DNA of 64,000 nt. Source: Escherichia coli (GTDB lineage Bacteria > Pseudomonadota > Gammaproteobacteria > Enterobacterales > Enterobacteriaceae). Positions 1-13,886 of the stretch are shown here, piece by piece. Each line of letters begins with the position of its first letter. The stretch's first letter is position 1. Where the stretch lies: NCBI RefSeq assembly GCF_003018115.1, contig NZ_CP027457.1; one strand, 5' to 3'. The position numbers were made by a program, and so were the translations under genes. A model generated the notes under the pieces. It did no database searches. It saw nothing but the letters and a program-made list of their open reading frames with translations, and had not been told where the DNA came from.

Positions 1-1429
1 CATTCATAAAATAGATATCACAGGTTTTATTATCTGTATTGATTATGATTTTTTCGAATGTTTTATAGGCAAGTGTACGACATAGCTCTCGCCCATTTTT
101 ACTGGTTAAGTCAATAGCATGAAAATCACCAAGTGAACTCACCGCTTTACTCTTCAAAGTTTTTAATGATACAGAAGCCCTTCGTAATTCCTTATCTAAT
201 ACTCTGATTTTTTCTGCTATAGCGGTAACTTCAGGCGCAACAGATAATGCAGCAATTAAATTATTAATTTTCATCTGGAGCTCAATAATTTTCAACTCTA
301 AAGTTTCATTAGCATCTTTCTTGTTTTCAACTGGTTGGATTTTACTACAATTAAAAAGCAACTCATTAATGATATTATAATCAACCAAATCTCTCTTTAT
401 TGATGGCCTGTCACATCGATGCAGTCTTCTCATCGGACAAACATAATAGCCATGCAAACTTCCAGATACCGCATGAACAATCATGGTATTACCACAAGCC
501 TCGCACTTCATAACTGTTCGAAGTAGATTTATCAACATAGGATTTTTGCTACTATTGCTAATACCAAAAGGTGCCAACCGAATTTCCTGCACAGCGTAAA
601 ACAAATCATCTGATATGACTCTGGGATAATAGCCAGCGATTTCACTTATTCCTTTACCTCTTGCACGATATGAAGGTACGCATATACCTATCAGAGCTTT
701 ATTCGCTAATAATTTTTCAATTACAGAAGGTCCCCATGCACTTTCTTTTCCTGAGAAATTCTTTACAGCATGATCATTTAAATACTTGGCTATTGCATTC
801 AATGAGCGCCTTTCCATCCTGAGTTTAAAAATTAGCTCAATAGTTTTCACCCTGTCGGGGTCTGGAACAAAAGCCGTTCTTTTGTCATCCAATGAGAGCC
901 ATCTCGGACAAGACGCCGTCATAATCGTGCCTGACTCCAGTGCATCCTGCCGTTTTTTCTTCCATGATAATTTAACCCGACTTGACTTTATCTCGCTTTC
1001 TTCATTTGCCCTTTGTGCTATAAGTATGGCTTTTATTAATGAATATGGCTCATTCAATGAGTCAATATTATAGACTGTATTATCGCAAAGAGTTATAACA
1101 TCAATACCGTGATTCAAAATCAATTTCAGACGCTCAATCGCTTCACCGACTTTTTCTCTTGAAAGTCTGTCCAGACTTTCAACTAACAATGTAGTCCCTG
1201 GCAATATATAACCATGTTCTATAGCATCTAAAAATTCCGAAAAAGCTCCTGATTGTGCATGCTTTCCATTGAATGCGCTTAACCCCAAATCTTCATACGT
1301 TACGGTATCAAGGTAATAATCACTATTTACCTTTAGCCATTCAGTAATAAGCCTTCTCTGGCGGTTTAATGAATCACCAGACATCTGACCTGGTGATGAA
1401 AATCGCATATATGCTATGGCTTTTTTCAT
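1..1429 (-). CDS. ybcK: Large serine recombinase (resolvase-type N-terminus), 5' portion only; gene runs off the window start
   Basis: Reverse-strand translation from ATG near 1429 reads MKKAIAYMRFSSPGQMSGDSLNRQRRLITEW... (resolvase catalytic Ser motif) and stays open to position 1; matches my recollection of DLP12 YbcK. Not in the ORF track because it lacks a stop in the window. Confidence 0.8.
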   Translation of the reverse strand, partial: MKKAIAYMRFSSPGQMSGDSLNRQRRLITEWLKVNSDYYLDTVTYEDLGLSAFNGKHAQSGAFSEFLDAIEHGYILPGTTLLVESLDRLSREKVGEAIERLKLILNHGIDVITLCDNTVYNIDSLNEPYSLIKAILIAQRANEESEIKSSRVKLSWKKKRQDALESGTIMTASCPRWLSLDDKRTAFVPDPDRVKTIELIFKLRMERRSLNAIAKYLNDHAVKNFSGKESAWGPSVIEKLLANKALIGICVPSYRARGKGISEIAGYYPRVISDDLFYAVQEIRLAPFGISNSSKNPMLINLLRTVMKCEACGNTMIVHAVSGSLHGYYVCPMRRLHRCDRPSIKRDLVDYNIINELLFNCSKIQPVENKKDANETLELKIIELQMKINNLIAALSVAPEVTAIAEKIRVLDKELRRASVSLKTLKSKAVSSLGDFHAIDLTSKNGRELCRTLAYKTFEKIIINTDNKTCDIYFMN

Positions 1430-1684
1430 GGTGACACCTGCTAAAGTATGCTTTTATAAACCTTAGTGGTGAGATATTATTTTTGTTTAATTTTTATTTA
1501 AAAAGACAATTAAGGTCACATTATCTTGAATATACAACAATAATCGTATTGCAATTTTCTTACACCATAATCTTGAAAGCACAAAAGAATGAATAAAAAC
1601 TAAAGACATTAACAAAAAGCATAAAACGAGGCCCATATAAATATACGAGCCTCCATATTTTAGTCGTTTAAAAACAAATTATTT

Positions 1685-2017
1685 TTAATGTGGTGTGCTT
1701 CGTGACAATAAATTAATAACCAACACACCGGCACAAATCAACATCATGCCTATAATGGCTGGCAGGTCCAACCGTTGGCCGAAAAATCCCCATGATAGTA
1801 AGCTAATCAGGACAATACCGACTCCTGACCAGATAGCATAAGCAATCCCTGTAGGAATATAAGCCAGCGTCTGAGCTAATAACCAGAATGATGCACAATA
1901 ACAAATAATTGTACCAACAGATGGCCATAACCGTGTAAAACCTTCTGAAAACTTCATTAAGGTTGTACCAATGACCTCTGCAAGTATTGCACCACCAAGA
2001 TAAATATAAGGATTCAT
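1685..2017 (-). CDS. emrE: SMR-family multidrug efflux protein EmrE (110 aa)
   Basis: Translation MNPYIYLGGAILAEVIGTTLMKFSEGFTRLWPSVGTIICYCASFWLLAQTLAYIPTGIAYAIWSGVGIVLISLLSWGFFGQRL... is essentially EmrE as I recall it; start taken at internal Met 19 of the track ORF. Confidence 0.95.
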   Translation of the reverse strand: MNPYIYLGGAILAEVIGTTLMKFSEGFTRLWPSVGTIICYCASFWLLAQTLAYIPTGIAYAIWSGVGIVLISLLSWGFFGQRLDLPAIIGMMLICAGVLVINLLSRSTPH

Positions 2018-2084
2018 AGCATATTCTTTCCTGTTCAAACTGGAGAGAATTGTACTACAGTTTGAACTCAACTCACCTGTTTCA

Positions 2085-2387
2085 TCATTGTGTACCCATT
2101 GATGTTCTTTTATATACCCTCAATACCCGTTTCATCGCGGCACTCTGGCGACACTCCTTAAAAATCAAATTCGTGCTCACCTTTCCTTCCCATTCTTCTC
2201 TGGTAGCGAACCGATAATACACCGTTCGCCAGACCTTACCATCAACGACCAGGATTCCTGCCCGCGCCATTTTAGCCGCAGCCTGATTTATGCTGGTTAC
2301 CGTTGCGCCTGTTACCGCGGCAACGTCCTGCGCACAGAATTTCTTATGAGTCCCCAGGTAATGAATAATTGCCTCTTTGCCCGTCAT
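2085..2387 (-). CDS. ren: Lambda Ren-like protein
   Basis: MTGKEAIIHYLGTH...AAKMARAGILVVDGKVWRTVYYRFATREE... is near-identical to lambda Ren as recalled; its start overlaps the P stop by 4 nt, as in lambda. Confidence 0.85.
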   Translation of the reverse strand: MTGKEAIIHYLGTHKKFCAQDVAAVTGATVTSINQAAAKMARAGILVVDGKVWRTVYYRFATREEWEGKVSTNLIFKECRQSAAMKRVLRVYKRTSMGTQ

Positions 2388-3085
2388 ACCCTTGCTCCTT
2401 TCAGCCCAAACTTAGCTTTGATTTCTGCGATCTTCGCCAGAGCCTGTGCACGATTTAGAGGTCTACCGCCCATGACAGGAAGTTGTTTTACTGGTTCAGG
2501 TATAGCCTCACCACGGTTAATTCGTGCGGTCATACAGGACAGTTCATCGGCAGCCTTGCGCCGTAATTCCGCGTCAGTCAACGCATTAGCCCGCATGTTC
2601 TGATACAGGTTGGTAACCAGCCAGTAGTGCGCGTTTGATTTCCACGGATAAGACTCTGCATCCGGATACAGCCCGCGCTTCCGGCAATACTCGTAAACCA
2701 TATCAACCAGCTCGCTGGCGTTTGGCAGCCCGGCGGTAACGGATGCTTCTTCCCGGCACCAGGCGACAAACTGCCCGGGTGATGGCAGGAATGGTCGATT
2801 CTGCCGACGGGCTACGCGCATTCCAGCGTTAACCTGTTCCATTGTGGTGATCCCGTTTTCCCGAAAAGCCAGCACCCACTGGCGGCGGATTTCGTTCAGT
2901 TCATTCTGGTCACGGTTAGCCAGGCTCGCCGGGAAAGTTGCCAGTAACTGGCTGAACACACCGTTGATGATCTGCGCTACCTGCTGTACCTGTGGCTTTT
3001 CGTCGTACTGTTCCGGCATGTTGTTGGCGATCCGACGCATCTGCTCACGGTCAAAGTTAACCATCTGTGCGGCGATGTTTTTCAT
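2384..3085 (-). CDS. P: Replication protein P (DnaB helicase loader), lambda P-like
   Basis: 233-aa translation MKNIAAQMVNFDREQMRRIANNMPEQYDEKPQVQQVAQIINGVF... matches lambda P over its full length as recalled. Confidence 0.9.
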   Translation of the reverse strand: MKNIAAQMVNFDREQMRRIANNMPEQYDEKPQVQQVAQIINGVFSQLLATFPASLANRDQNELNEIRRQWVLAFRENGITTMEQVNAGMRVARRQNRPFLPSPGQFVAWCREEASVTAGLPNASELVDMVYEYCRKRGLYPDAESYPWKSNAHYWLVTNLYQNMRANALTDAELRRKAADELSCMTARINRGEAIPEPVKQLPVMGGRPLNRAQALAKIAEIKAKFGLKGARV

Positions 3086-4101
3086 AGATCCACCCCGTAA
3101 ATCCAGTCAGTGTTTGTCAGGTCGAGTTTTGGTTTGCCGACTGTCACGCCAGCCTGTTGCTTGTTCCGGTTGATTTCGAGCTGGGTCCACTTGTCGCGGA
3201 GTTTGGCCGGACTCAGCACGTTACCGGACCAGAAGTTGTCCTGGCAGGCCCAGCGGAACAGTACACACATGTCGCGGTGGTTACGTCCATCACGTTCACG
3301 CATCAGACGGATATCGTTAGCCCACCCTGCAAAATTCGGTTTTCTGGCTGATGGCGCGATGGTCTTCACCATGTCAAACATCCACTCTGCGGCGGTCAGG
3401 TCTTCTGCTGTCCCCCACTTGCTGCCGCTCTGAATCGCAGCATCCGCTTTCACCACAGGAAGGTCGTTTTCTGGCAGGTCAGAGGATTCGCCAGAATTCT
3501 CGGACGAATAAGGTTTTATATTGTCTTTTGTTAGTTTGTCTTTTGTGTTTACCTGATTCGGGTAAGTGCCTTTACCTGATTTGGGTAAACTTTTCTTACC
3601 TGATTCAGGTAAATTTACCTCTTTCAGGTAAACTTTATTTTTCTTACCTGATTCGGGTAATTTTGACCATTCCCTGACCACATTATTAATGCCGATATTC
3701 CGCCCGCTCTGAATAAAAATCCCACGCTTTACCAGAACACTTTTTGCAGCAGAACACTTGTGCGGCAATATCCCGGTCAACTCGGAAAGTTGCTCGTTGC
3801 TCACCCAATCCAGTTTTTTATTAAAGCCATATGTTTTGCGCATGACAGCCAGGAAGACCAGAAGCTGGTGCTGTGTTAATCCGGCCAGCATTACAGCTTC
3901 CAGCAACTCATTTGCAATGCGCGTATAACCATCATCGAGATCTGCCACGCGCGGCTCCTTTTGTGCCGCATCCGGCACTGGAAAATTGAATATCTCAGCA
4001 GTGTTTGCCATAATTCCTCCCGCAATGAGTGTGTTACGATTTGCACCTGAAAGTCGGTTCTGTTGCCGCAGACCGACTTTCGCCATTTTTGAACCTGTCA
4101 T
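3082..4101 (-). CDS. O: Replication initiator O-like protein (lambda O-type N-terminal iteron-binding domain, divergent C-terminus)
   Basis: N-terminal VADLDDGYTRIANELLEAVMLAGLTQHQLLVFLAVMRKTYGFNK resembles lambda O; the gene contains the iteron array; the 4-nt overlap with P is typical. Confidence 0.85.
   Translation of the reverse strand: MTGSKMAKVGLRQQNRLSGANRNTLIAGGIMANTAEIFNFPVPDAAQKEPRVADLDDGYTRIANELLEAVMLAGLTQHQLLVFLAVMRKTYGFNKKLDWVSNEQLSELTGILPHKCSAAKSVLVKRGIFIQSGRNIGINNVVREWSKLPESGKKNKVYLKEVNLPESGKKSLPKSGKGTYPNQVNTKDKLTKDNIKPYSSENSGESSDLPENDLPVVKADAAIQSGSKWGTAEDLTAAEWMFDMVKTIAPSARKPNFAGWANDIRLMRERDGRNHRDMCVLFRWACQDNFWSGNVLSPAKLRDKWTQLEINRNKQQAGVTVGKPKLDLTNTDWIYGVDL
3550..3660. repeat. 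Replication origin iterons: five copies of about 16 bp TACCTGATTCGGGTAA (each TACC-N8-GGTA dyad) inside the O gene, next to an AT-rich stretch (about 3490-3545)
   Basis: Directly visible copies starting near 3550, 3573, 3597, 3616 and 3645; the same arrangement as ori-lambda inside O. Confidence 0.65.
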
Positions 4102-4643
4102 ATTGCCCCCAGCATGGTGGTGACCATCGCCATCAATGGACCAGCCAGATCTGGGTCCACTCGAAACATCGACACAATGCCTTCACTCATCTCCTTCAGT
4201 TTCTGGTGGCGTGGTGCGTTGAGAATGACCGCCTGCTTTGCCTCACTGAGTTCCTTTTCCATTTCAGCCAGCCGAGCCATGAAGCTATCCTGCTCAACCA
4301 GGTGGCCGCGATATTCCAGCGGTAGTACCGCCAGAATTGCCGGGGTCAGTTCACGCACGTTATTTCGGTATTTTTCAGAATCGAATTTGTTATCGAGGAA
4401 GCGGAACAGCTTCTGGCGTGCACGACTGACATCATCAGGAAAATCGATGGTGCCGCCGCCCTGTGCTCGATACTCATTCACAATGAGTGCGGCAACTACA
4501 TCCTGATTATCTTCAGCAGACCAGGCGCGGACGGCATCACGAATTTTTTCGTGGCCTGGCACCTGTTTTATTTGAGAACGATTTATCACCGCAGTCGGGC
4601 TAAATCCGCTAGTCTGTTGGTATGTAAGTGGTTGCATAATCAT
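4098..4643 (-). CDS. CII-position regulatory protein, possibly YdaT/CP76-family (181 aa)
   Basis: Occupies the cII position between cro-like and O; motifs EYRAQGGG and LTPAILAVLPLEY recall the YdaT/phage CII (CP76) family. Family assignment is from memory only. Confidence 0.5.
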   Translation of the reverse strand: MIMQPLTYQQTSGFSPTAVINRSQIKQVPGHEKIRDAVRAWSAEDNQDVVAALIVNEYRAQGGGTIDFPDDVSRARQKLFRFLDNKFDSEKYRNNVRELTPAILAVLPLEYRGHLVEQDSFMARLAEMEKELSEAKQAVILNAPRHQKLKEMSEGIVSMFRVDPDLAGPLMAMVTTMLGAI

Positions 4644-4667
4644 CGCCTTATCAGTTAACGCCGCAGA

Positions 4668-4895
4668 TTAGGCGGCAGAATTACTCGCGTTAAACAATGG
4701 TGCGAGGTCGGGACGAATATCTGCTGGCTTAATCTTTCCACCAGTGGCTGAGACAATTTTCATTACATAGCGGGCATCAATTCCGCCACCGTGTAGCCAA
4801 CGCCAAACAGTGGGCTGGGCTACACCGCATAGATCTGCCAGTCGTTTTTGACTACCTGTAATACTGATTGCGAGTTGAATGGTTTGATTTGTCAT
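4668..4895 (-). CDS. Cro-like HTH regulator (YdaS-like), 75 aa from the ATG
   Basis: Helix-turn-helix motif QKRLADLCGVAQPTVWRWL; divergent from the cI-like gene; AGGA 8 nt upstream of the ATG at 4895 (track ORF starts at a TTG at 4901). Confidence 0.6.
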   Translation of the reverse strand: MTNQTIQLAISITGSQKRLADLCGVAQPTVWRWLHGGGIDARYVMKIVSATGGKIKPADIRPDLAPLFNASNSAA

Positions 4896-5005
4896 TATCA
4901 ATTCCTATTGGTATTACAATGAATGGATAATAGCAATGCGTATTAACCATGGCAATAGCAAAACGTGTTTTGACCATCAATACGCAAGCGTATAAATTAA
5001 AACTT
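4896..5005. promoter_or_regulatory. Immunity-region divergent promoter/operator region (OR-like), with dyad sites ATAATAGCAATGCGTATTAA (about 4927-4946) and GCAATAGCAAAACGTGTTTTG (about 4952-4972)
   Basis: Intergenic between divergent cro-like and cI-like genes; dyad-symmetric repeats sharing AATAGCAA with the OL-like region at 7530-7577. Confidence 0.45.
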
Positions 5006-5698
5006 ATGAAAAAAGAAACTCTTGCTGATCGCTTAAACCTAGCGATGGAACAATCTGGGATGTCTCAAGGCGCTCTTGCAAAGGCGTCTGGCGTAGCTCA
5101 ACCCACAATCTGGAGACTGACAAGCGGCAACGCGCGCGGCTCAACAAAAATTGTTGAAATAGCGAATGCATTGGGTGTTCGAACAGAGTGGCTCTCATCA
5201 GGCATAGGCCCGATGAGAAATGACGGTCAACAATCAGGGAAGCCTACTGTCAACCATTCCAAATACTTCAAGATTGACGTTCTTGATATAGAAGTGAGTG
5301 CCGGGCCGGGAGTCATCAACCGTGAGTTTGTAGAAGTCCTACGCTCGGTTGAGTACTCGTTTGACGATGCTCGTCACATGTTCGATGGCAGGAAGGCGGA
5401 AAATATCCGCATCATTAACGTACGTGGTGACAGCATGTCAGGAACAATCGAACCAGGTGATCTGCTGTTCGTTGATATCACGGTTAAATCTTTCGACGGT
5501 GATGGCATCTATGCGTTTCTGTACGACGACACAGCCCATGTAAAGCGCCTGCAAATGATGAAGGATAAGCTGTTGGTTATCTCTGATAACAAGAGCTACT
5601 CACCGTGGGACCCGATCGAGAAAGACGAGATGAACCGGGTGTTCATTTTTGGGAAAGTCATCGGGAGCATGCCGCAGACCTACAGGAAGCATGGGTAG
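5006..5698 (+). CDS. cI: cI-like prophage repressor (N-terminal XRE-type HTH plus C-terminal S24/LexA-like autoprotease domain)
   Basis: HTH motif GMSQGALAKASGVAQPTIWRL; C-terminal region with GDSM Ser motif (RGDSMSGTIEPGDLLFVD) and downstream Lys (HVKRLQ). Start could also be the upstream ATG at 4949 (track); 5006 leaves room for operators. Confidence 0.8.
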   Translation: MKKETLADRLNLAMEQSGMSQGALAKASGVAQPTIWRLTSGNARGSTKIVEIANALGVRTEWLSSGIGPMRNDGQQSGKPTVNHSKYFKIDVLDIEVSAGPGVINREFVEVLRSVEYSFDDARHMFDGRKAENIRIINVRGDSMSGTIEPGDLLFVDITVKSFDGDGIYAFLYDDTAHVKRLQMMKDKLLVISDNKSYSPWDPIEKDEMNRVFIFGKVIGSMPQTYRKHG

Positions 5699-5733
5699 GT
5701 AGTATGTAAAGAATTACCTTTGGTTGATTTGTA

Positions 5734-5763
5734 ATAGCTACCGATTACGTTATCGGTAGCTAT
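5734..5763 (+). terminator. Perfect hairpin (12-bp arms ATAGCTACCGAT / ATCGGTAGCTAT, 6-nt loop) followed by an A/T-rich tract; possible terminator or attenuator after cI
   Basis: Inverted repeat read directly from sequence; followed by aagaaattttt. Confidence 0.35.
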
Positions 5764-5821
5764 AAGAAATTTTTATGTCTTTAACTGTGTTTATTTATTC
5801 AATACTAGTTGGACTATAGCA

Positions 5822-6844
5822 ATGAAAGATAACAGACAAAAAGTCGTTCATTATAAAAAAGCAGTAATCCCACACAGCAAATCATCATTACAAAACATAC
5901 TACTTAGTATTATAGGTGAGGGCGGCGTTGCAGAAAAAGTACTTAGTAGACAAGAAAAAATAACACCTTCAGATGAAAATTCGGGGTATCGTTTCTTAAA
6001 TAAAAGCGACACATACAAAACTATACTTTTTGGGCAACTGGTTTTATTTGAAAAAGACAAAAGCCAGTCTCTATTAGAGCTTAGTGATAATGTTAAATTT
6101 TATGACATTAACTCCATCACGTCTAATGATATAATTATTGATGGAGATAAACGTAGTGACAAAAAAAGAGAGTTTGTAGATTCAATTTTATATTTTGGTG
6201 TACTAAACAACCATGTCATGATCGTTCAATCCACATCGCTTCGAGCAAGGGAGCTTGAGGCGCATTTGAATTGGCTAATTAATACATTCACAGATGAAAA
6301 AGAATCTGTGTTAATGCTTCAAGATAAGCCATCCGAAGAAACGATGAAAAAAATGGAGAAAGCACCAGCCAAGAGCATAAAAATTGGTGGATTACCCATT
6401 ACTTCAGAAGTTAAAAATTCAGAGAACCAAACACCCTCCTTTTCAAATGGTTCGGTGAAGACAATAAAATACCGCCCAATAGGGAAAGGAGGTGCGCTAC
6501 TAAAAGCATTTTTTGGCGATAACTGGGCAAATGATATAAACATTAAAGATTCATTAGATGAGGCCAATTTACAAGTAAGCCTCGAGATTACATACTTCAG
6601 AAAAACAAATGATAGCGGTCAAGCTGTTATAGACAGTATTGCTACCTCACTACGACATCTAGATGAGGATGATATTAGCATCAAACTTCAAGGCGGTGGG
6701 GAAATAACGGGAAAAGAGATAAAATTATCCGGAAAAATTAGCGTTGAACATAACAATGGCATTATTGATGAAAATGATTTATTCTTAAAAATGCATAAGT
6801 GGCTGTTCTCAAAACTTGATGCCGGAGAATTGGTTGCAAAATAA
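5822..6844 (+). CDS. Hypothetical 340-aa soluble protein, first gene of a rexA-position two-gene module (candidate phage-exclusion component)
   Basis: Long ORF in a markedly AT-rich segment immediately downstream of cI on the same strand; no family recognised by eye; no predicted TM segment. Confidence 0.6.
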   Translation: MKDNRQKVVHYKKAVIPHSKSSLQNILLSIIGEGGVAEKVLSRQEKITPSDENSGYRFLNKSDTYKTILFGQLVLFEKDKSQSLLELSDNVKFYDINSITSNDIIIDGDKRSDKKREFVDSILYFGVLNNHVMIVQSTSLRARELEAHLNWLINTFTDEKESVLMLQDKPSEETMKKMEKAPAKSIKIGGLPITSEVKNSENQTPSFSNGSVKTIKYRPIGKGGALLKAFFGDNWANDINIKDSLDEANLQVSLEITYFRKTNDSGQAVIDSIATSLRHLDEDDISIKLQGGGEITGKEIKLSGKISVEHNNGIIDENDLFLKMHKWLFSKLDAGELVAK

Positions 6845-6865
6845 CCTACCAAAAGGAGGGCGATA

Positions 6866-7372
6866 ATGAAATCGAACATCATCCACCTTATTGGTATGTT
6901 GGTCTTCTATTTTGCTGGTTACTTTTTGTTCAAGTTAGCATTGGGCTATATTACACCGGGTGTTGTCCTAACAGCTCCGTGGGCTGTGGTTGGACTCATG
7001 CAATTGCCATTATCATATTGTATACAAGCCATTTTTAAGGCAAATGAGGCCAATGACCACTCGTCTTTAACCCCTAGTGAGGTTAGGCGATTAGTGCCAA
7101 TAGTCAAATCCAAGAGACTGAAATTGGTTTTATTATTAGCTTTCTATGTATTTTCAACTTTGTTTGTAATCTTGGGGTTAATAGCAAGCACAAATGATCA
7201 AGCCCTACTCTTCAGGGTCTTAAAAATTTCAGGTGGATTACTCTTTATTTCTCTCTATACCAGTGTATTCGTTCATAAAATAATGGTTGAGCTTCAAGAG
7301 TTTAAAGCGTTATTAAACCGAAGAGAATCAGAGAAGAAGGAAAGAGAGTCACTCCTTGATAGATTAAAATGA
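6866..7372 (+). CDS. Hypothetical 168-aa membrane protein with four predicted TM helices and a charged C-terminal tail, second gene of the rexB-position module
   Basis: Hydrophobic stretches IIHLIGMLVFYFAGYFLFKLALGYI, VVLTAPWAVVGLMQLPLSYCIQAIF, LKLVLLLAFYVFSTLFVILGLIAS and GGLLFISLYTSVFVHKIMV; RBS AAGGAGG upstream; 21-nt gap from the upstream gene. Confidence 0.6.
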   Translation: MKSNIIHLIGMLVFYFAGYFLFKLALGYITPGVVLTAPWAVVGLMQLPLSYCIQAIFKANEANDHSSLTPSEVRRLVPIVKSKRLKLVLLLAFYVFSTLFVILGLIASTNDQALLFRVLKISGGLLFISLYTSVFVHKIMVELQEFKALLNRRESEKKERESLLDRLK

Positions 7373-7381
7373 CCCCCCCTC

Positions 7382-7408
7382 CCCGGCCGTCGTGCCGGGT
7401 TTTCTTTT
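7382..7408 (+). terminator. Rho-independent terminator (stem CCCGGC/GCCGGG, loop CGTCGT, then TTTTCTTTT)
   Basis: Read directly from sequence, 10 nt after the stop of the membrane-protein gene. Confidence 0.65.
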
Positions 7409-7529: not shown

Positions 7530-7577
7530 AATCAATAGCAATAAGTATTGATATCACCAATAGCAATAGCTATTATT
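7530..7577. promoter_or_regulatory. Candidate OL-like operators / pL region: TCAATAGCAATAAGTATTGA and CCAATAGCAATAGCTATTATT
   Basis: Dyad-symmetric sites sharing the AATAGCAAT core with the OR-like region; located upstream of the N-position ORF, as OL/pL are in lambda. Confidence 0.35.
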
Positions 7578-8064: not shown

Positions 8065-8370
8065 TCACTTGTTTGGGCCGTGTGGAGCCAAAGCAAATTC
8101 AAGGTTGTAGATACTCCCATCAGGGGCTTTGAAATCAACCTCAAACCGAGATGGCGGATTGAATGGATCGAGTACATTTTCTGCTACGCATGTAGATCTC
8201 CAATTGATATGGCCTTTGCCAAGCGAGCGAGATTCCCACCAAGCTCTCCAGGTCTGGTCTTGCGGTTGATCACTCCCCTTTTCCCTTACATACCAATGAT
8301 TCTTTTTCGACTGCTTACCCATTTCTGCGGTTGGGTACATCGGAGAAGACTTTAACTTATCAATCAGCAT
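8065..8370 (-). CDS. Hypothetical 101-aa protein encoded antisense to the early-left operon
   Basis: ORF on the opposite strand with AAGGTG 6 nt upstream of the ATG at 8370 (track extends to an upstream GTG at 8379); no recognisable family; no TM segment. Confidence 0.4.
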   Translation of the reverse strand: MLIDKLKSSPMYPTAEMGKQSKKNHWYVREKGSDQPQDQTWRAWWESRSLGKGHINWRSTCVAENVLDPFNPPSRFEVDFKAPDGSIYNLEFALAPHGPNK

Positions 8371-8508
8371 TCTAGACACCTTATTTATCAGATTTTGAGC
8401 AAGACATAGTGTGATCCAACATTTTGATTAATCAAGCGAGTTCATTCAAACAACTATGCAGTTAACGCACTGTCTGGATCCGCACATCAAAATTTCAGGA
8501 GTTTATCC

Positions 8509-8805
8509 ATGAACGCTTATTACATTCAGGATCGTCTTGAGGCTCAGAGCTGGGCGCGTCACTACCAGCAGATCGCCCGTGAAGAGAAAGAGGCAGAACT
8601 GGCAGACGACATGGAAAAAGGCCTGCCCCAGCACCTGTTTGAATCACTCTGCATCGATCATTTGCAACGCCACGGGGCCAGCAAAAAAGCCATTACCCGT
8701 GCGTTTGATGACGATGTTGAGTTTCAGGAGCGCATGGCAGAACACATCCGGTACATGGTTGAAACCATTGCTCACCACCAGGTTGATATTGATTCAGAGG
8801 TATAA
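8509..8805 (+). CDS. gam: Gam (RecBCD inhibitor), 98-aa form
   Basis: [60 protein letters not shown]... matches lambda Gam as recalled; AGGAG RBS. Confidence 0.95.
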
Positions 8806-8810
8806 AACGG

Positions 8811-9596
8811 ATGAGTACAGCACTCGCAACGCTGGCTGGGAAGCTGGCTGAACGTGTCGGCATGGATTCTGTCGACCCACAGGAACTGATCACCACTCTT
8901 CGCCAGACAGCATTTAAAGGCGATGCCAGCGATGCGCAGTTCATCGCATTGCTGATCGTCGCCAACCAATACGGCCTTAATCCGTGGACGAAAGAAATTT
9001 ACGCCTTCCCCGATAAGCAGAACGGCATCGTTCCGGTGGTGGGCGTTGATGGCTGGTCCCGCATCATCAACGAAAACCAGCAGTTTGACGGCATGGACTT
9101 TGAACAGGACAACGAATCCTGCACATGCCGGATTTACCGCAAAGACCGCAATCATCCGATCTGCGTTACCGAGTGGATGGATGAATGCCGCCGCGAACCA
9201 TTCAAAACCCGCGAAGGCAGAGAAATCACGGGGCCGTGGCAGTCGCATCCCAAACGGATGTTACGGCATAAAGCCATGATTCAGTGTGCCCGTCTCGCCT
9301 TCGGATTTGCTGGTATCTATGACAAGGATGAAGCCGAGCGCATTGTCGAAAATACCGCATACACTGCAGAACGTCAGCCGGAACGCGACATCACTCCGGT
9401 TAACGATGAAACCATGCAGGAGATTAACACTCTGCTGATTGCCCTGGATAAAACATGGGATGACGACTTATTGCCGCTCTGTTCCCAGATATTTCGCCGC
9501 GACATTCGCGCATCGTCAGAACTGACACAGGCCGAAGCAGTGAAAGCTCTTGGATTCCTGAAACAGAAAGCCACTGAGCAGAAGGTGGCAGCATGA
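8811..9596 (+). CDS. bet: Bet (Red-beta single-strand annealing protein), 261 aa
   Basis: Full-length match to lambda Bet as recalled ([66 protein letters not shown]...). Confidence 0.95.
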
Positions 9597-11900: not shown

Positions 11901-12919
11901 AAAAGCTAGGGGATTTACCTGATGTCACTTTTGAAGAGGCCTGCCTAAGATGGCTTGAGGAAAAAGCTGATAAAAAATCTCTCGATTCAGATAAAAGCCG
12001 GATTGAGTTCTGGCTTGAACATTTTGAGGGTATAAGGCTTAAAGATATCTCGGAGGCAAAGATTTACTCTGCTGTAAGCAGAATGCATAACAGAAAGACG
12101 AAAGAAATATGGAAACAGAAAGTTCAGGCCGCCATCAGGAAAGGTAAAGAACCGCCTGTTTATGAACCAAAGCCAGTATCAACTCAGACAAAGGCAAAGC
12201 ATCTTGCCATGATAAAGGCCATTCTCCGTGCTGCAGAACGCGACTGGAAGTGGCTGGAAAAAGCGCCTGTCATCAAGATACCAGCGGTCAGAAACAAGCG
12301 AGTCAGATGGCTGGAAAAGGAGGAAGCAAAACGCCTTATTGATGAGTGCCCCGAACCACTGAAATCTGTCGTCAAGTTTGCGCTGGCAACTGGTCTGAGA
12401 AAGTCGAACATCATAAATCTGGAATGGCAACAAATCGACATGCAGCGACGAGTTGCCTGGGTGAATCCAGAAGAGAGCAAATCAAACCGCGCCATTGGCG
12501 TGGCGCTGAACGATACCGCCTGTAAAGTGTTGCGTGATCAAATAGGCAAGCATCACAAATGGGTGTTTGTACATACCAAGGCGGCTAAGCGAGCAGATGG
12601 AACATCAACGCCTGCGGTCAGGAAGATGCGCATCGACAGCAAGACATCATGGCTATCAGCTTGTCGTCGTGCAGGAATTGAAGATTTCCGTTTCCATGAC
12701 CTCAGACACACCTGGGCAAGCTGGCTGATTCAGTCAGGCGTCCCATTATCAGTGCTTCAGGAAATGGGCGGATGGGAGTCCATAGAAATGGTTCGTAGGT
12801 ATGCTCACCTTGCGCCTAATCATTTGACAGAGCATGCGAGGAAAATAGACGACATTTTTGGTGATAATGTCCCAAATATGTCCCACTCTGGAATTATGGA
12901 GGATATAAAGAAGGCGTAA
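11756..12919 (+). CDS. intD: Tyrosine integrase, DLP12 IntD-type (387 aa)
   Basis: Full-length match to DLP12 IntD as recalled ([46 protein letters not shown]...; C-terminal [10 protein letters not shown]...RYAHL catalytic region); stop 16 nt from the tRNA 3' end. Confidence 0.95.
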
Positions 12920-12934
12920 CTGATTGAATTGTAA

Positions 12935-13011
12935 TGGCGCGCCCTGCAGGATTCGAACCTGCGGCCCACGACTTAGAAGGTCGTTGCTCTATCCAACTGA
13001 GCTAAGGGCGC
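12935..13011 (-). tRNA. argU: tRNA-Arg (anticodon UCU)
   Basis: Reverse complement reads GCGCCCTTAGCTCAGTTGGATAGAGCAACGACCTTCTAAGTCGTGGGCCGCAGGTTCGAATCCTGCAGGGCGCGCCA; cloverleaf with TCT anticodon and encoded CCA. Confidence 0.95.
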
Positions 13012-13253
13012 GTTGATACCGCAATGCGGTGTAATCGCGTGAATTATACGGTCAACCCTTGCTGAGTCAATGGCTTTTGATCTGGTTGCTGAACAAGTGA
13101 ACGACCGCGTCTGATTTTCTGATTTATTTCGCTATAGCGGCAAACAAACGCACACCGCTGCGCGTCTGAATCAAGAAAACCCGTATTTTCATGTATCAAA
13201 GTACAATTTACCGCCCTAACGGAAAATTGTCCGCTCCTATGAGACTGGTAACT

Positions 13254-13886
13254 ATGAAACCAACGTCGGTGATCATTATGGATACTCATCCTATCATCAG
13301 AATGTCTATTGAAGTTCTGTTGCAAAAAAACAGTGAATTGCAGATTGTCCTGAAAACGGATGATTACCGCATAACCATCGATTATCTCCGAACCCGTCCT
13401 GTTGATTTAATCATTATGGATATAGACTTGCCCGGAACAGACGGTTTTACCTTCCTGAAAAGGATCAAACAAATCCAGAGCACAGTGAAAGTGTTATTTT
13501 TATCATCGAAATCAGAATGCTTTTATGCTGGCAGAGCGATACAAGCTGGTGCTAACGGTTTTGTCAGTAAATGCAATGATCAGAATGATATTTTTCATGC
13601 CGTTCAGATGATCCTCTCCGGATACACGTTTTTTCCCAGCGAAACGCTTAACTATATAAAAAGCAATAAATGTAGTACGAATAGTTCAACGGTCACTGTG
13701 CTATCTAATCGTGAAGTGACCATATTACGTTATCTAGTTAGCGGATTATCTAATAAAGAAATTGCCGATAAGTTATTACTTAGCAATAAAACAGTTAGTG
13801 CGCATAAATCTAATATTTATGGCAAGCTAGGTTTGCATTCAATTGTAGAGCTTATCGACTACGCCAAATTATACGAATTAATATAA
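13254..13886 (+). CDS. fimZ: Fimbrial response regulator FimZ (REC plus LuxR-type HTH)
   Basis: Translation from MKPTSVIIMDTHPIIRMSIEVLLQKN... matches FimZ as recalled; track ORF extends upstream to 13191. Confidence 0.9.
   Translation: MKPTSVIIMDTHPIIRMSIEVLLQKNSELQIVLKTDDYRITIDYLRTRPVDLIIMDIDLPGTDGFTFLKRIKQIQSTVKVLFLSSKSECFYAGRAIQAGANGFVSKCNDQNDIFHAVQMILSGYTFFPSETLNYIKSNKCSTNSSTVTVLSNREVTILRYLVSGLSNKEIADKLLLSNKTVSAHKSNIYGKLGLHSIVELIDYAKLYELI

Follow-up and report, generated by a model that had tools for sequence, protein, structure and literature searches.

A candidate RexAB-type exclusion module of highly divergent sequence in the immunity region of a lambdoid prophage of Escherichia coli

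The DNA analysed here, referred to as the window, is a stretch of 64,000 nucleotides of an Escherichia coli chromosome (contig NZ_CP027457.1, assembly GCF_003018115.1), and it carries a prophage in which two genes, termed A and B, lie directly downstream of a cI-type repressor gene. We lean towards reading the pair as a highly divergent RexAB-type abortive-infection/exclusion module, which a lambdoid (Bievrevirus/DLP12-site) prophage carries within its immunity region as a moron. This reading draws on the structure of the two genes, the RexA-like fold of a model of protein A, the pairing of A with B, the recurrent placement of the pair after cI, the mobility of the cassette, and transcription in a lysogen in which the B transcript exceeds that of A. 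A first-pass annotation, made from the DNA letters, had proposed an undescribed exclusion system here, consisting of a soluble and a four-transmembrane protein; the open reading frames (ORFs), their + strand orientation and their position directly after the repressor are as it described. Judged from the modelled fold, A–B looks like a very distant, database-invisible relative of RexA/RexB and not like a wholly new kind of system. It is filed as a RexAB variant because the RexA-like fold is shared, although all sequence tests of membership in RexA or RexB failed.

The modelled fold of A and the limits of sequence comparison

The two genes are as follows.
5822–6844, + strand: gene A, 340 aa, ATG start; soluble protein, proposed sensor or DNA-binding partner
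6866–7372, + strand: gene B, 168 aa, ATG start; inner-membrane protein with four transmembrane (TM) segments, proposed membrane effector

Protein A contains no hydrophobic segment (the Kyte–Doolittle maximum in a 19-residue window is 1.1). Its AlphaFold2 (AF2) model, based on a 41-sequence alignment, has a mean predicted local distance difference test score (pLDDT) of 73.7 and a predicted template modelling score (pTM) of 0.70, and displays the two-domain RexA/RdgC-like fold, consisting of a globular domain that is split and of a dimerisation domain. In a Foldseek comparison of this model with all PDB chains, RexA (8TWQ) ranked first (probability 0.93, E 1.6e-3), and the matches below it were noise. 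The neighbours listed for RexA in the paper describing its structure are RdgC, IML3, CHL4 and the Corynebacterium glutamicum epimerase 3OH8 (PMC11077077). The modelled fold of protein A is RexA-like, and its link to Rex is visible at the level of structure only, because profile–profile comparison was negative. Basic residues are conserved in the family at K7, K12, R43, R143, K184 and R278. Protein A belongs to PHROG 3482, in which no function is assigned.

Among the AFDB50 relatives of A returned by Foldseek are proteins annotated as RdgC, DUF4868 and DUF4747 (ranks 7, 29 and 37). At the level of models, these relatives hint at a wider superfamily joining Rex-like and Kiwa-like soluble components. 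In addition, a Methylobacter prophage (locus L013) encodes an RdgC-family protein (PF04381) at 8263–9050, approximately 3 kb downstream of its A–B pair, and this one element therefore encodes RdgC alongside a protein of the structurally related RexA fold.

The hydropathy profile of protein B reveals four hydrophobic helices (approximately residues 5–27, 32–56, 86–108 and 113–137), followed by a charged C-terminal helix. An AF2 model from a 12-sequence alignment (pLDDT 84) likewise consists of four long helices (2–27, 40–63, 70–107 and 112–167). Together with the absence of a hydrophobic segment in A, this bears out the soluble plus four-TM architecture that had been proposed. Basic residues of B lie in the loop at 57–85 and the C-terminal tail; the positive-inside rule predicts an N-in/C-in topology, with both termini and the basic loop in the cytoplasm. 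The four TM helices and the N-in/C-in arrangement predicted for B by the positive-inside rule agree with what is reported for RexB and favour the RexAB-type reading. At identities of 18–33%, the family still has the S-E-x-R-R-L motif in its cytoplasmic loop; the proline of TM2 is invariant, and a serine within TM4 and a glutamate following TM4 are also kept. Protein B is assigned to PHROG 16807, again with no function given there.

Searches of sequence collections gave a uniformly negative picture. Neither protein matches a PADLOC, Pfam-A or NCBIfam model, and this includes the toxin and antitoxin families of those three collections; for A, Pfam returns nothing even with the threshold relaxed to E ≤ 10, and 70 diverse members of its family contain no relevant domain. 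The reference entries for lambda Rex were PF15969/PF15968, PDLC02339/PDLC02340 and the RexA structure 8TWQ. As a positive control, the PADLOC RexA model recovers lambda RexA at 9e-110 and the RexB model recovers lambda RexB at 9e-61. A profile search of PDB sequences with A did not recover 8TWQ.

A number of results weigh against the RexAB-type reading. The PADLOC RexA model hits none of 13 A-family proteins, and the RexB model none of 11 B-family proteins. BLASTP of A against RexA (E 0.79) and of B against RexB (E 0.27) is not significant. In hhalign comparisons, A alignments of 41 and of 70 sequences score a probability of less than 1% with a RexA alignment of 23 sequences, and B scores 0.4% with RexB. 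The fold evidence comes from a model of medium confidence, which is weak at residues 190–290 (pLDDT 40–63) and of which just 165 residues align. Protein A is acidic to neutral (pI 6.4), compared with a pI of 8.6 for RexA. Protein B matches RexB in size class and topology only, and the four-helix membrane design is common. A DUF4868 (KwaB-type) protein among the AFDB50 relatives of A leaves room for a Kiwa-like mechanism. Finally, the literature searched contains no phage-exclusion, toxicity or DNA-binding data on the A–B family. The sequence comparisons suggest that any similarity of A and B to Rex lies below the level of sequence detection, and unrelatedness is not concluded from them. The view of the first-pass annotation that the proteins resemble neither RexA/RexB nor a recognised family is therefore upheld for sequence (PADLOC, Pfam and NCBIfam) and is superseded for the modelled fold of A, for which 8TWQ is the first Foldseek match.

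An obligate pair in an exchangeable immunity-region cassette

A and B are an obligate pair. A word search finds 129 clusters of the A family at 90% identity, and an exhaustive HMMER search (E ≤ 1e-3) at least 818 representatives at 50% identity, 306 of them with E ≤ 1e-30. In IMG/VR, 80 loci encoding A relatives fall into 29 clusters at 90% identity, and a B-family gene is next to A in every one (29/29; hmmsearch E ≤ 1e-22). The B start lies between −26 and +25 nt from the A stop codon, with one exception at +128 nt; the gap in the window is 21 nt. The pairing recurs in each genome context that was inspected individually. A and B are not chance ORFs, as A has homologous clusters, B is conserved beside it and both are transcribed in a lysogen.

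A same-strand helix–turn–helix (HTH)/S24 repressor is found within 1.3 kb upstream of the pair in 13 of the 29 clusters, and within 200 nt in nine. Examples of this placement come from prophages of E. coli, Klebsiella (with two cI alleles), Acinetobacter, Pseudomonas and Methylobacter. Elsewhere the pair is flanked by the lysis genes on one side and by the Q antiterminator or a DUF968-type gene on the other, adjoins stx2 in Stx2a phages, follows a primase gene in satellite-like elements, or lies beside structural genes. As the cassette also occurs far from repressors, the function of A–B is not tied to a particular cI/Cro switch, and the variety of sites speaks for a moron with an autonomous function, for instance defence.

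Several copies of the module are disrupted. In Shigella phage SfIV (locus L005, 3501–4324) the B homologue is truncated by IS1; in the equine E. coli strain T309.Ta3 (NZ_CP128255.1, 3009114–3012083) an IS3-family element lies within the module; and split or truncated A genes are present in IMG/VR loci L054, L073 and L075. Such copies may reflect a fitness cost or toxicity. The A homologue of Acinetobacter phage phi1_092021 (locus L004, 3483–4484) is labelled 'DefenseFinder protein', with no system name. This is the sole public label found that hints at defence, and it could be traced to no named system; our guess is that it derives from a structure-based annotator matching RexA.

In the window, the pair forms part of a cassette with sharply defined ends.
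5699–7381, + strand: exchangeable cargo cassette (hairpin, gene A and gene B), from the cI stop codon to the backbone terminator
5734–5763, + strand: hairpin between cI and A, with a perfect 12-bp stem and a 6-nt loop
7382–7408, + strand: intrinsic terminator closing the immunity-region transcript, CCCGGC-CGTCGT-GCCGGG then TTTTCTTTT

BLASTN comparison with the sibling phages PhiR47_2 and PhiR30_1 reveals similarity that ends exactly at 5698 and resumes at 7379–7382. The same slot holds GevT/GevA in PhiR47_2, HipD/HipA in PhiR5_1 and two other hypothetical genes in PhiR30_1; megablast against the GevT/GevA and HipD/HipA phages finds similarity confined to cI and the backbone. The equivalent slots are at 2954–4454 in PhiR47_2 (locus L002) and 3299–4788 in PhiR30_1 (locus L003), with breakpoints at identical nucleotides. 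In this phage group, the interval from the cI stop codon to the immunity-region terminator is a hotspot for the exchange of cargo. This agrees with the earlier description of the genes as a horizontally acquired moron, as does their base composition: A and B have GC contents of 34.9% and 37.3% (29% and 39% at third codon positions), or 35–37% against approximately 50% for the flanks. For comparison, the values are 48.8% for cI, 50–53% for the red genes, 53% for bet and 50.1% for the window.

The terminator is a clean one, as had been noted, but it is a phage backbone element, since sibling phages with other cargo carry the same one; with similarity resuming at 7379–7382, its inclusion in the cassette was ruled out. 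The hairpin had been taken as a sign of attenuated or independent expression. The structure is real: the fold of the cI–A intergenic RNA has a z score of −3.4, and none of 200 shuffled sequences folded as well. It is possibly a partial terminator, an RNA-processing site or a protein-binding site. It is absent upstream of A in the 81%-identical Klebsiella cassettes and in the more distant Methylobacter, Acinetobacter and Pseudomonas cassettes; the window contains no second copy, and there is no Rfam match. A role as a conserved regulatory element of the system was rejected, given its absence from related cassettes and the lack of an Rfam match. Nor can a fixed attenuator account for expression, because the cI:A transcript ratio varies by condition (see below). 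Regulation independent of cI stands from the earlier proposal.

The surrounding features are listed below.
4902–4998: oR-like operator/promoter region between cro (− strand) and cI, with CAATAGCAA-type repeats and divergent sigma-70-like promoters
4955→4927, − strand: pR-like site, sigma-70-like
4970–4998, + strand: pRM-like site, sigma-70-like
5006–5698, + strand: cI-type repressor with HTH and S24 peptidase domains (annotated start 5006; longest ORF 4949–5698)
7533–7576, + strand: oL/pL-like region, in which CAATAGCAA repeats overlap a sigma-70-like promoter (TTGATA-17-TATTAT) directed into kil–gam–bet–exo
downstream of the oL/pL-like region: kil, gam, bet and exo, by annotation
12115–13278: intD, of the prophage at the argU/DLP12 site
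13294–13370: tRNA-Arg, at the same site

The repressor matches phrog_4 at 4e-70, with weaker LexA/UmuD-like S24 matches, and is annotated as 'CI repressor' in phage Perceval (OV696612, Bievrevirus). Three exact copies of CAATAGCAA occur in the 64-kb window, at 4953 (oR-like) and at 7533 and 7558 (oL-like), and one-mismatch copies lie beside them at 4902, 4928 and 7564. The operator clusters at 4902–4961 and 7533–7572 flank cI, A, B and the terminator. With oR- and oL-like clusters on either side, the arrangement matches that of lambda cI–rexA–rexB, and the rexA–rexB position assigned to the module, between cI and the terminator and inside the bracketed immunity region, is correct.

The prophage is inserted at the argU/DLP12 site, and core chromosomal genes begin at 13.6 kb. 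It looks like a complete relative of DLP12, the defective prophage of K-12, which we take to lack this immunity region. Its left side (window positions 1–2400) encodes homologues of ybcK, emrE and ren. Across the queried 2.6-kb cI–A–B region it is 98.4% identical to Perceval, an active prophage of the adherent-invasive E. coli (AIEC) strain LF82, and, of 5426 complete E. coli genomes, 42 contain the A–B module with an identity of at least 99.6%. Two further genes of the region may be recorded. A 104-aa ORF at 8065–8379 (− strand), opposite to the surrounding kil–gam–bet–exo operon and 'hypothetical' in RefSeq, could be another moron or an antisense-encoded gene of the early-left region. The gene at the cII position (4098–4643, − strand) bears conflicting labels: 'toxin YdaT domain-containing protein' in RefSeq and 'CII regulatory protein' in Perceval.

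Expression in the lysogen, proposed mechanism and rival explanations

Transcription was assessed from RNA-seq data for LF82, re-analysed by Misson et al., whose S1 Table gives log2(fpkm+5) values (fpkm, fragments per kilobase per million) for five conditions: overnight growth in LB, culture sampled at two times, and 1 h and 6 h in macrophages (PMC9928086). The LF82 copy of the module is 99.7% identical to that in the window. The ranges are as follows.
B (LF82_152): 8.4–10.4
A (LF82_153): 4.2–9.6
cI (LF82_154): 6.2–8.1
kil and gam: 2.3–3.4, the floor being 2.32

The module is transcribed under repression, with the genes of the kil–gam–bet–exo operon silent (kil and gam at or near the floor), and the earlier expectation that the genes are expressed in the lysogen holds for cI, A and B alike. 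B exceeds both A and cI in all five conditions, and is the strongest Perceval moron listed in LF82, 81-fold over the prophage background (PMC9928086). The A transcript depends on condition, over an approximately 40-fold range, and the A:cI ratio runs from approximately 0.3 to 5.6 (cI:A from about 3:1 to 1:5.6). As these levels rise above that of cI, B, and A in at least one condition, must also use promoters other than pRM.

Several weak sigma-70-like sites lie within A, and they are not decisive for the position of a B promoter. At the 3' end of A (approximately 6750–6815; columns ~334–400 of a DNA alignment of cassettes), the DNA is near-invariant, synonymous sites included, between cassettes that are ~81% identical at the protein level. 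This segment is a candidate for the independent B promoter implied by the RNA-seq data, or for another embedded signal, and is not decisive either. The ribosome-binding site of A is weak; that of B (AAGGAGG) is strong and conserved. Lambda rexB is additionally transcribed from pLIT, and the excess of B transcript combined with a strong B ribosome-binding site recalls that extra transcription. Rex exclusion depends on the RexA:RexB stoichiometry (PMC12894663).

If the RexAB-type reading is correct, a mechanism can be proposed on the pattern of lambda Rex, of RexABpp from Pseudomonas putida, and of the Sbash and CarolAnn systems. Protein A would probably be a dimeric DNA-binding sensor with no sequence specificity, like RexA and RexApp, and B a four-helix inner-membrane effector. 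In the lysogen, both genes are on while lytic genes are off, and B would be kept in excess by a putative promoter of its own and its strong ribosome-binding site. A trigger supplied by a superinfecting phage, such as a DNA–protein intermediate of replication or recombination or a phage protein, would change the state of A, which would then engage B. Activated B would permeabilise or depolarise the membrane, and the resulting growth arrest would abort the infection and spare the clonal population. The anti-phage activity, DNA binding, A–B interaction and membrane depolarisation of the family are what we infer from these parallels.

Other explanations assign different roles to the same components. 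In a Kiwa-like mechanism, B would sense the membrane perturbation caused by phage attachment or DNA entry and would release or activate A, which would clamp phage DNA and block replication and late transcription without killing the cell. The component logic is alike, Kiwa combining the 4-TM protein KwaA with the dimeric, non-specific DNA clamp KwaB (PMC11785009); the AFDB50 match at rank 29 is a 'DUF4868 domain-containing' protein (E 2e-20, TM-score ~0.64–0.69, 24% identity), and constitutively high B expression would suit a standing membrane sensor. We consider this mechanism unlikely. KwaA, KwaB and DUF4868 profiles give no PADLOC or Pfam match in the A or B families. The PDB Foldseek hits of A include no KwaB chain, in libraries that were not checked for containing KwaB. 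A broader proposal, which we regard as doubtful, makes the A–B family an evolutionary bridge, with Rex and Kiwa belonging to one ancient superfamily that joins an RdgC-fold DNA clamp to a four-helix membrane partner. In that event the mechanism could differ from that of classical Rex, for example by membrane capture of incoming DNA. Reversed roles, with A the cytotoxic or antiviral effector and B sequestering it at the membrane until infection frees it, would follow the precedent of Butters gp30/gp31, in which defence does not require the membrane partner and the RexA-like protein acts as effector (PMC12894663). A B transcript above that of A in five of five LF82 conditions suits a stoichiometric sequestering partner, but the remaining four described Rex-like systems have a membrane-protein effector (PMC12894663), and strict conservation of the TM helices and loop motif of B at 18–33% identity suggests more than a tether; this arrangement seems quite improbable.

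A function outside defence is distinctly unlikely. It might be modulation of the lysis–lysogeny decision of the prophage, as in the stabilisation of the lytic state by RexA, or some other lysogenic-conversion or addiction (toxin–antitoxin-like) function. The GevT/GevA and HipD/HipA toxin–antitoxin pairs in the same hotspot of sibling phages, and the roughly 40-fold range of A transcription, are in keeping with it; however, A and B match no toxin–antitoxin family, and the cassette also lies at the lysis–Q, stx2, primase and structural-gene sites, far from repressors, so that no cognate cI/Cro is needed. Lastly, B could act on its own in superinfection exclusion, keeping DNA from entering at the inner membrane, with A accessory or regulatory. 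Small, highly expressed prophage inner-membrane proteins are typical of Sie-type exclusion, and B, at 81-fold over background, is such a protein. The linkage of A to B in all 29 clusters, together with the RexA-like modelled fold of A, nevertheless favours a two-component mechanism, which makes a role for B on its own highly improbable.

Comparison with known exclusion systems

The mechanism of Rex exclusion is still unsolved ~70 years after its discovery, and only five Rex-like systems had been described by a 2026 count (PMC12894663). Under the RexAB-type reading, the A–B family would extend these by a large branch unrelated in sequence, comprising 818 or more clusters at 50% identity. Its hosts are tractable or medically relevant, and include E. 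coli (among them AIEC LF82), O157:H7 Stx2a phages, Shigella phage SfIV, Klebsiella, and prophages of Acinetobacter baumannii. Tools built on PADLOC, Pfam and NCBIfam models would undercount Rex-type defences, because the versions tested miss A–B entirely. Features common to the Rex and A–B families could reveal the determinants of activation. Candidate features are a membrane partner in excess, the basic residues that are conserved in A, and, in B, the basic loop together with the C-terminal helix.

Kiwa resembles A–B in having two genes, one for a 4-TM protein and one for a soluble protein of approximately 315–340 aa, and KwaB clamps DNA as a dimer. The gene order differs, however, being kwaA then kwaB (membrane protein first) in Kiwa and soluble protein first in A–B, and the best solved-structure match of A is RexA, not KwaB.

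The Rex-like systems of actinobacteriophages (Sbash gp30/31, CarolAnn gp44/43 and Butters gp30/31) were identified by BLAST to RexA (PMC11077077). Like A–B, they combine a soluble RexA-like protein of approximately 340–370 aa and a membrane protein, encoded close to the immunity repressor, and they are prophage-encoded heterotypic defences. They belong to a different phylum, their gene order is inverted in some cases, and in Butters the roles are reversed. RexABpp, encoded by PP_5643/PP_5644 of P. putida prophage P1 (Rosendahl et al. 2026, PMC12894663), was compared by its published description only. Defence, DNA binding and membrane damage have been demonstrated experimentally for this pair (PMC12894663). 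RexApp was found by HHpred against RexA (98% probability), whereas the A family is not detected by hhalign; RexBpp is longer than B, at 181 aa or more, and two extra genes separate the P. putida pair from cI.

Lambda RexAB excludes T4 rII and further phages by depolarising the membrane; RexA acts as a dimer with non-specific DNA binding and activates RexB. With lambda RexAB itself, the A–B module shares a four-TM protein encoded directly 3' of a RexA-like gene, a location after cI in the immunity region and expression from the repressed prophage. Separate transcription of the membrane component, as in lambda, is matched by B levels above those of cI and A in LF82, the position of the B promoter being putative. 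The differences are that A, which is not basic (pI 6.4; RexA 8.6), exceeds RexA by 61 residues (340 versus 279 aa), and that B exceeds RexB by 24 residues, with a long charged C-terminal helix and a conserved S-E-x-R-R-L loop for which the RexB alignment offers no equivalent. Unlike lambda RexAB, the A–B cassette, known here from sequence, model and transcripts, also occurs outside immunity regions. On this comparison A–B is no new principle; it is an unrecognised large branch of the classic system.

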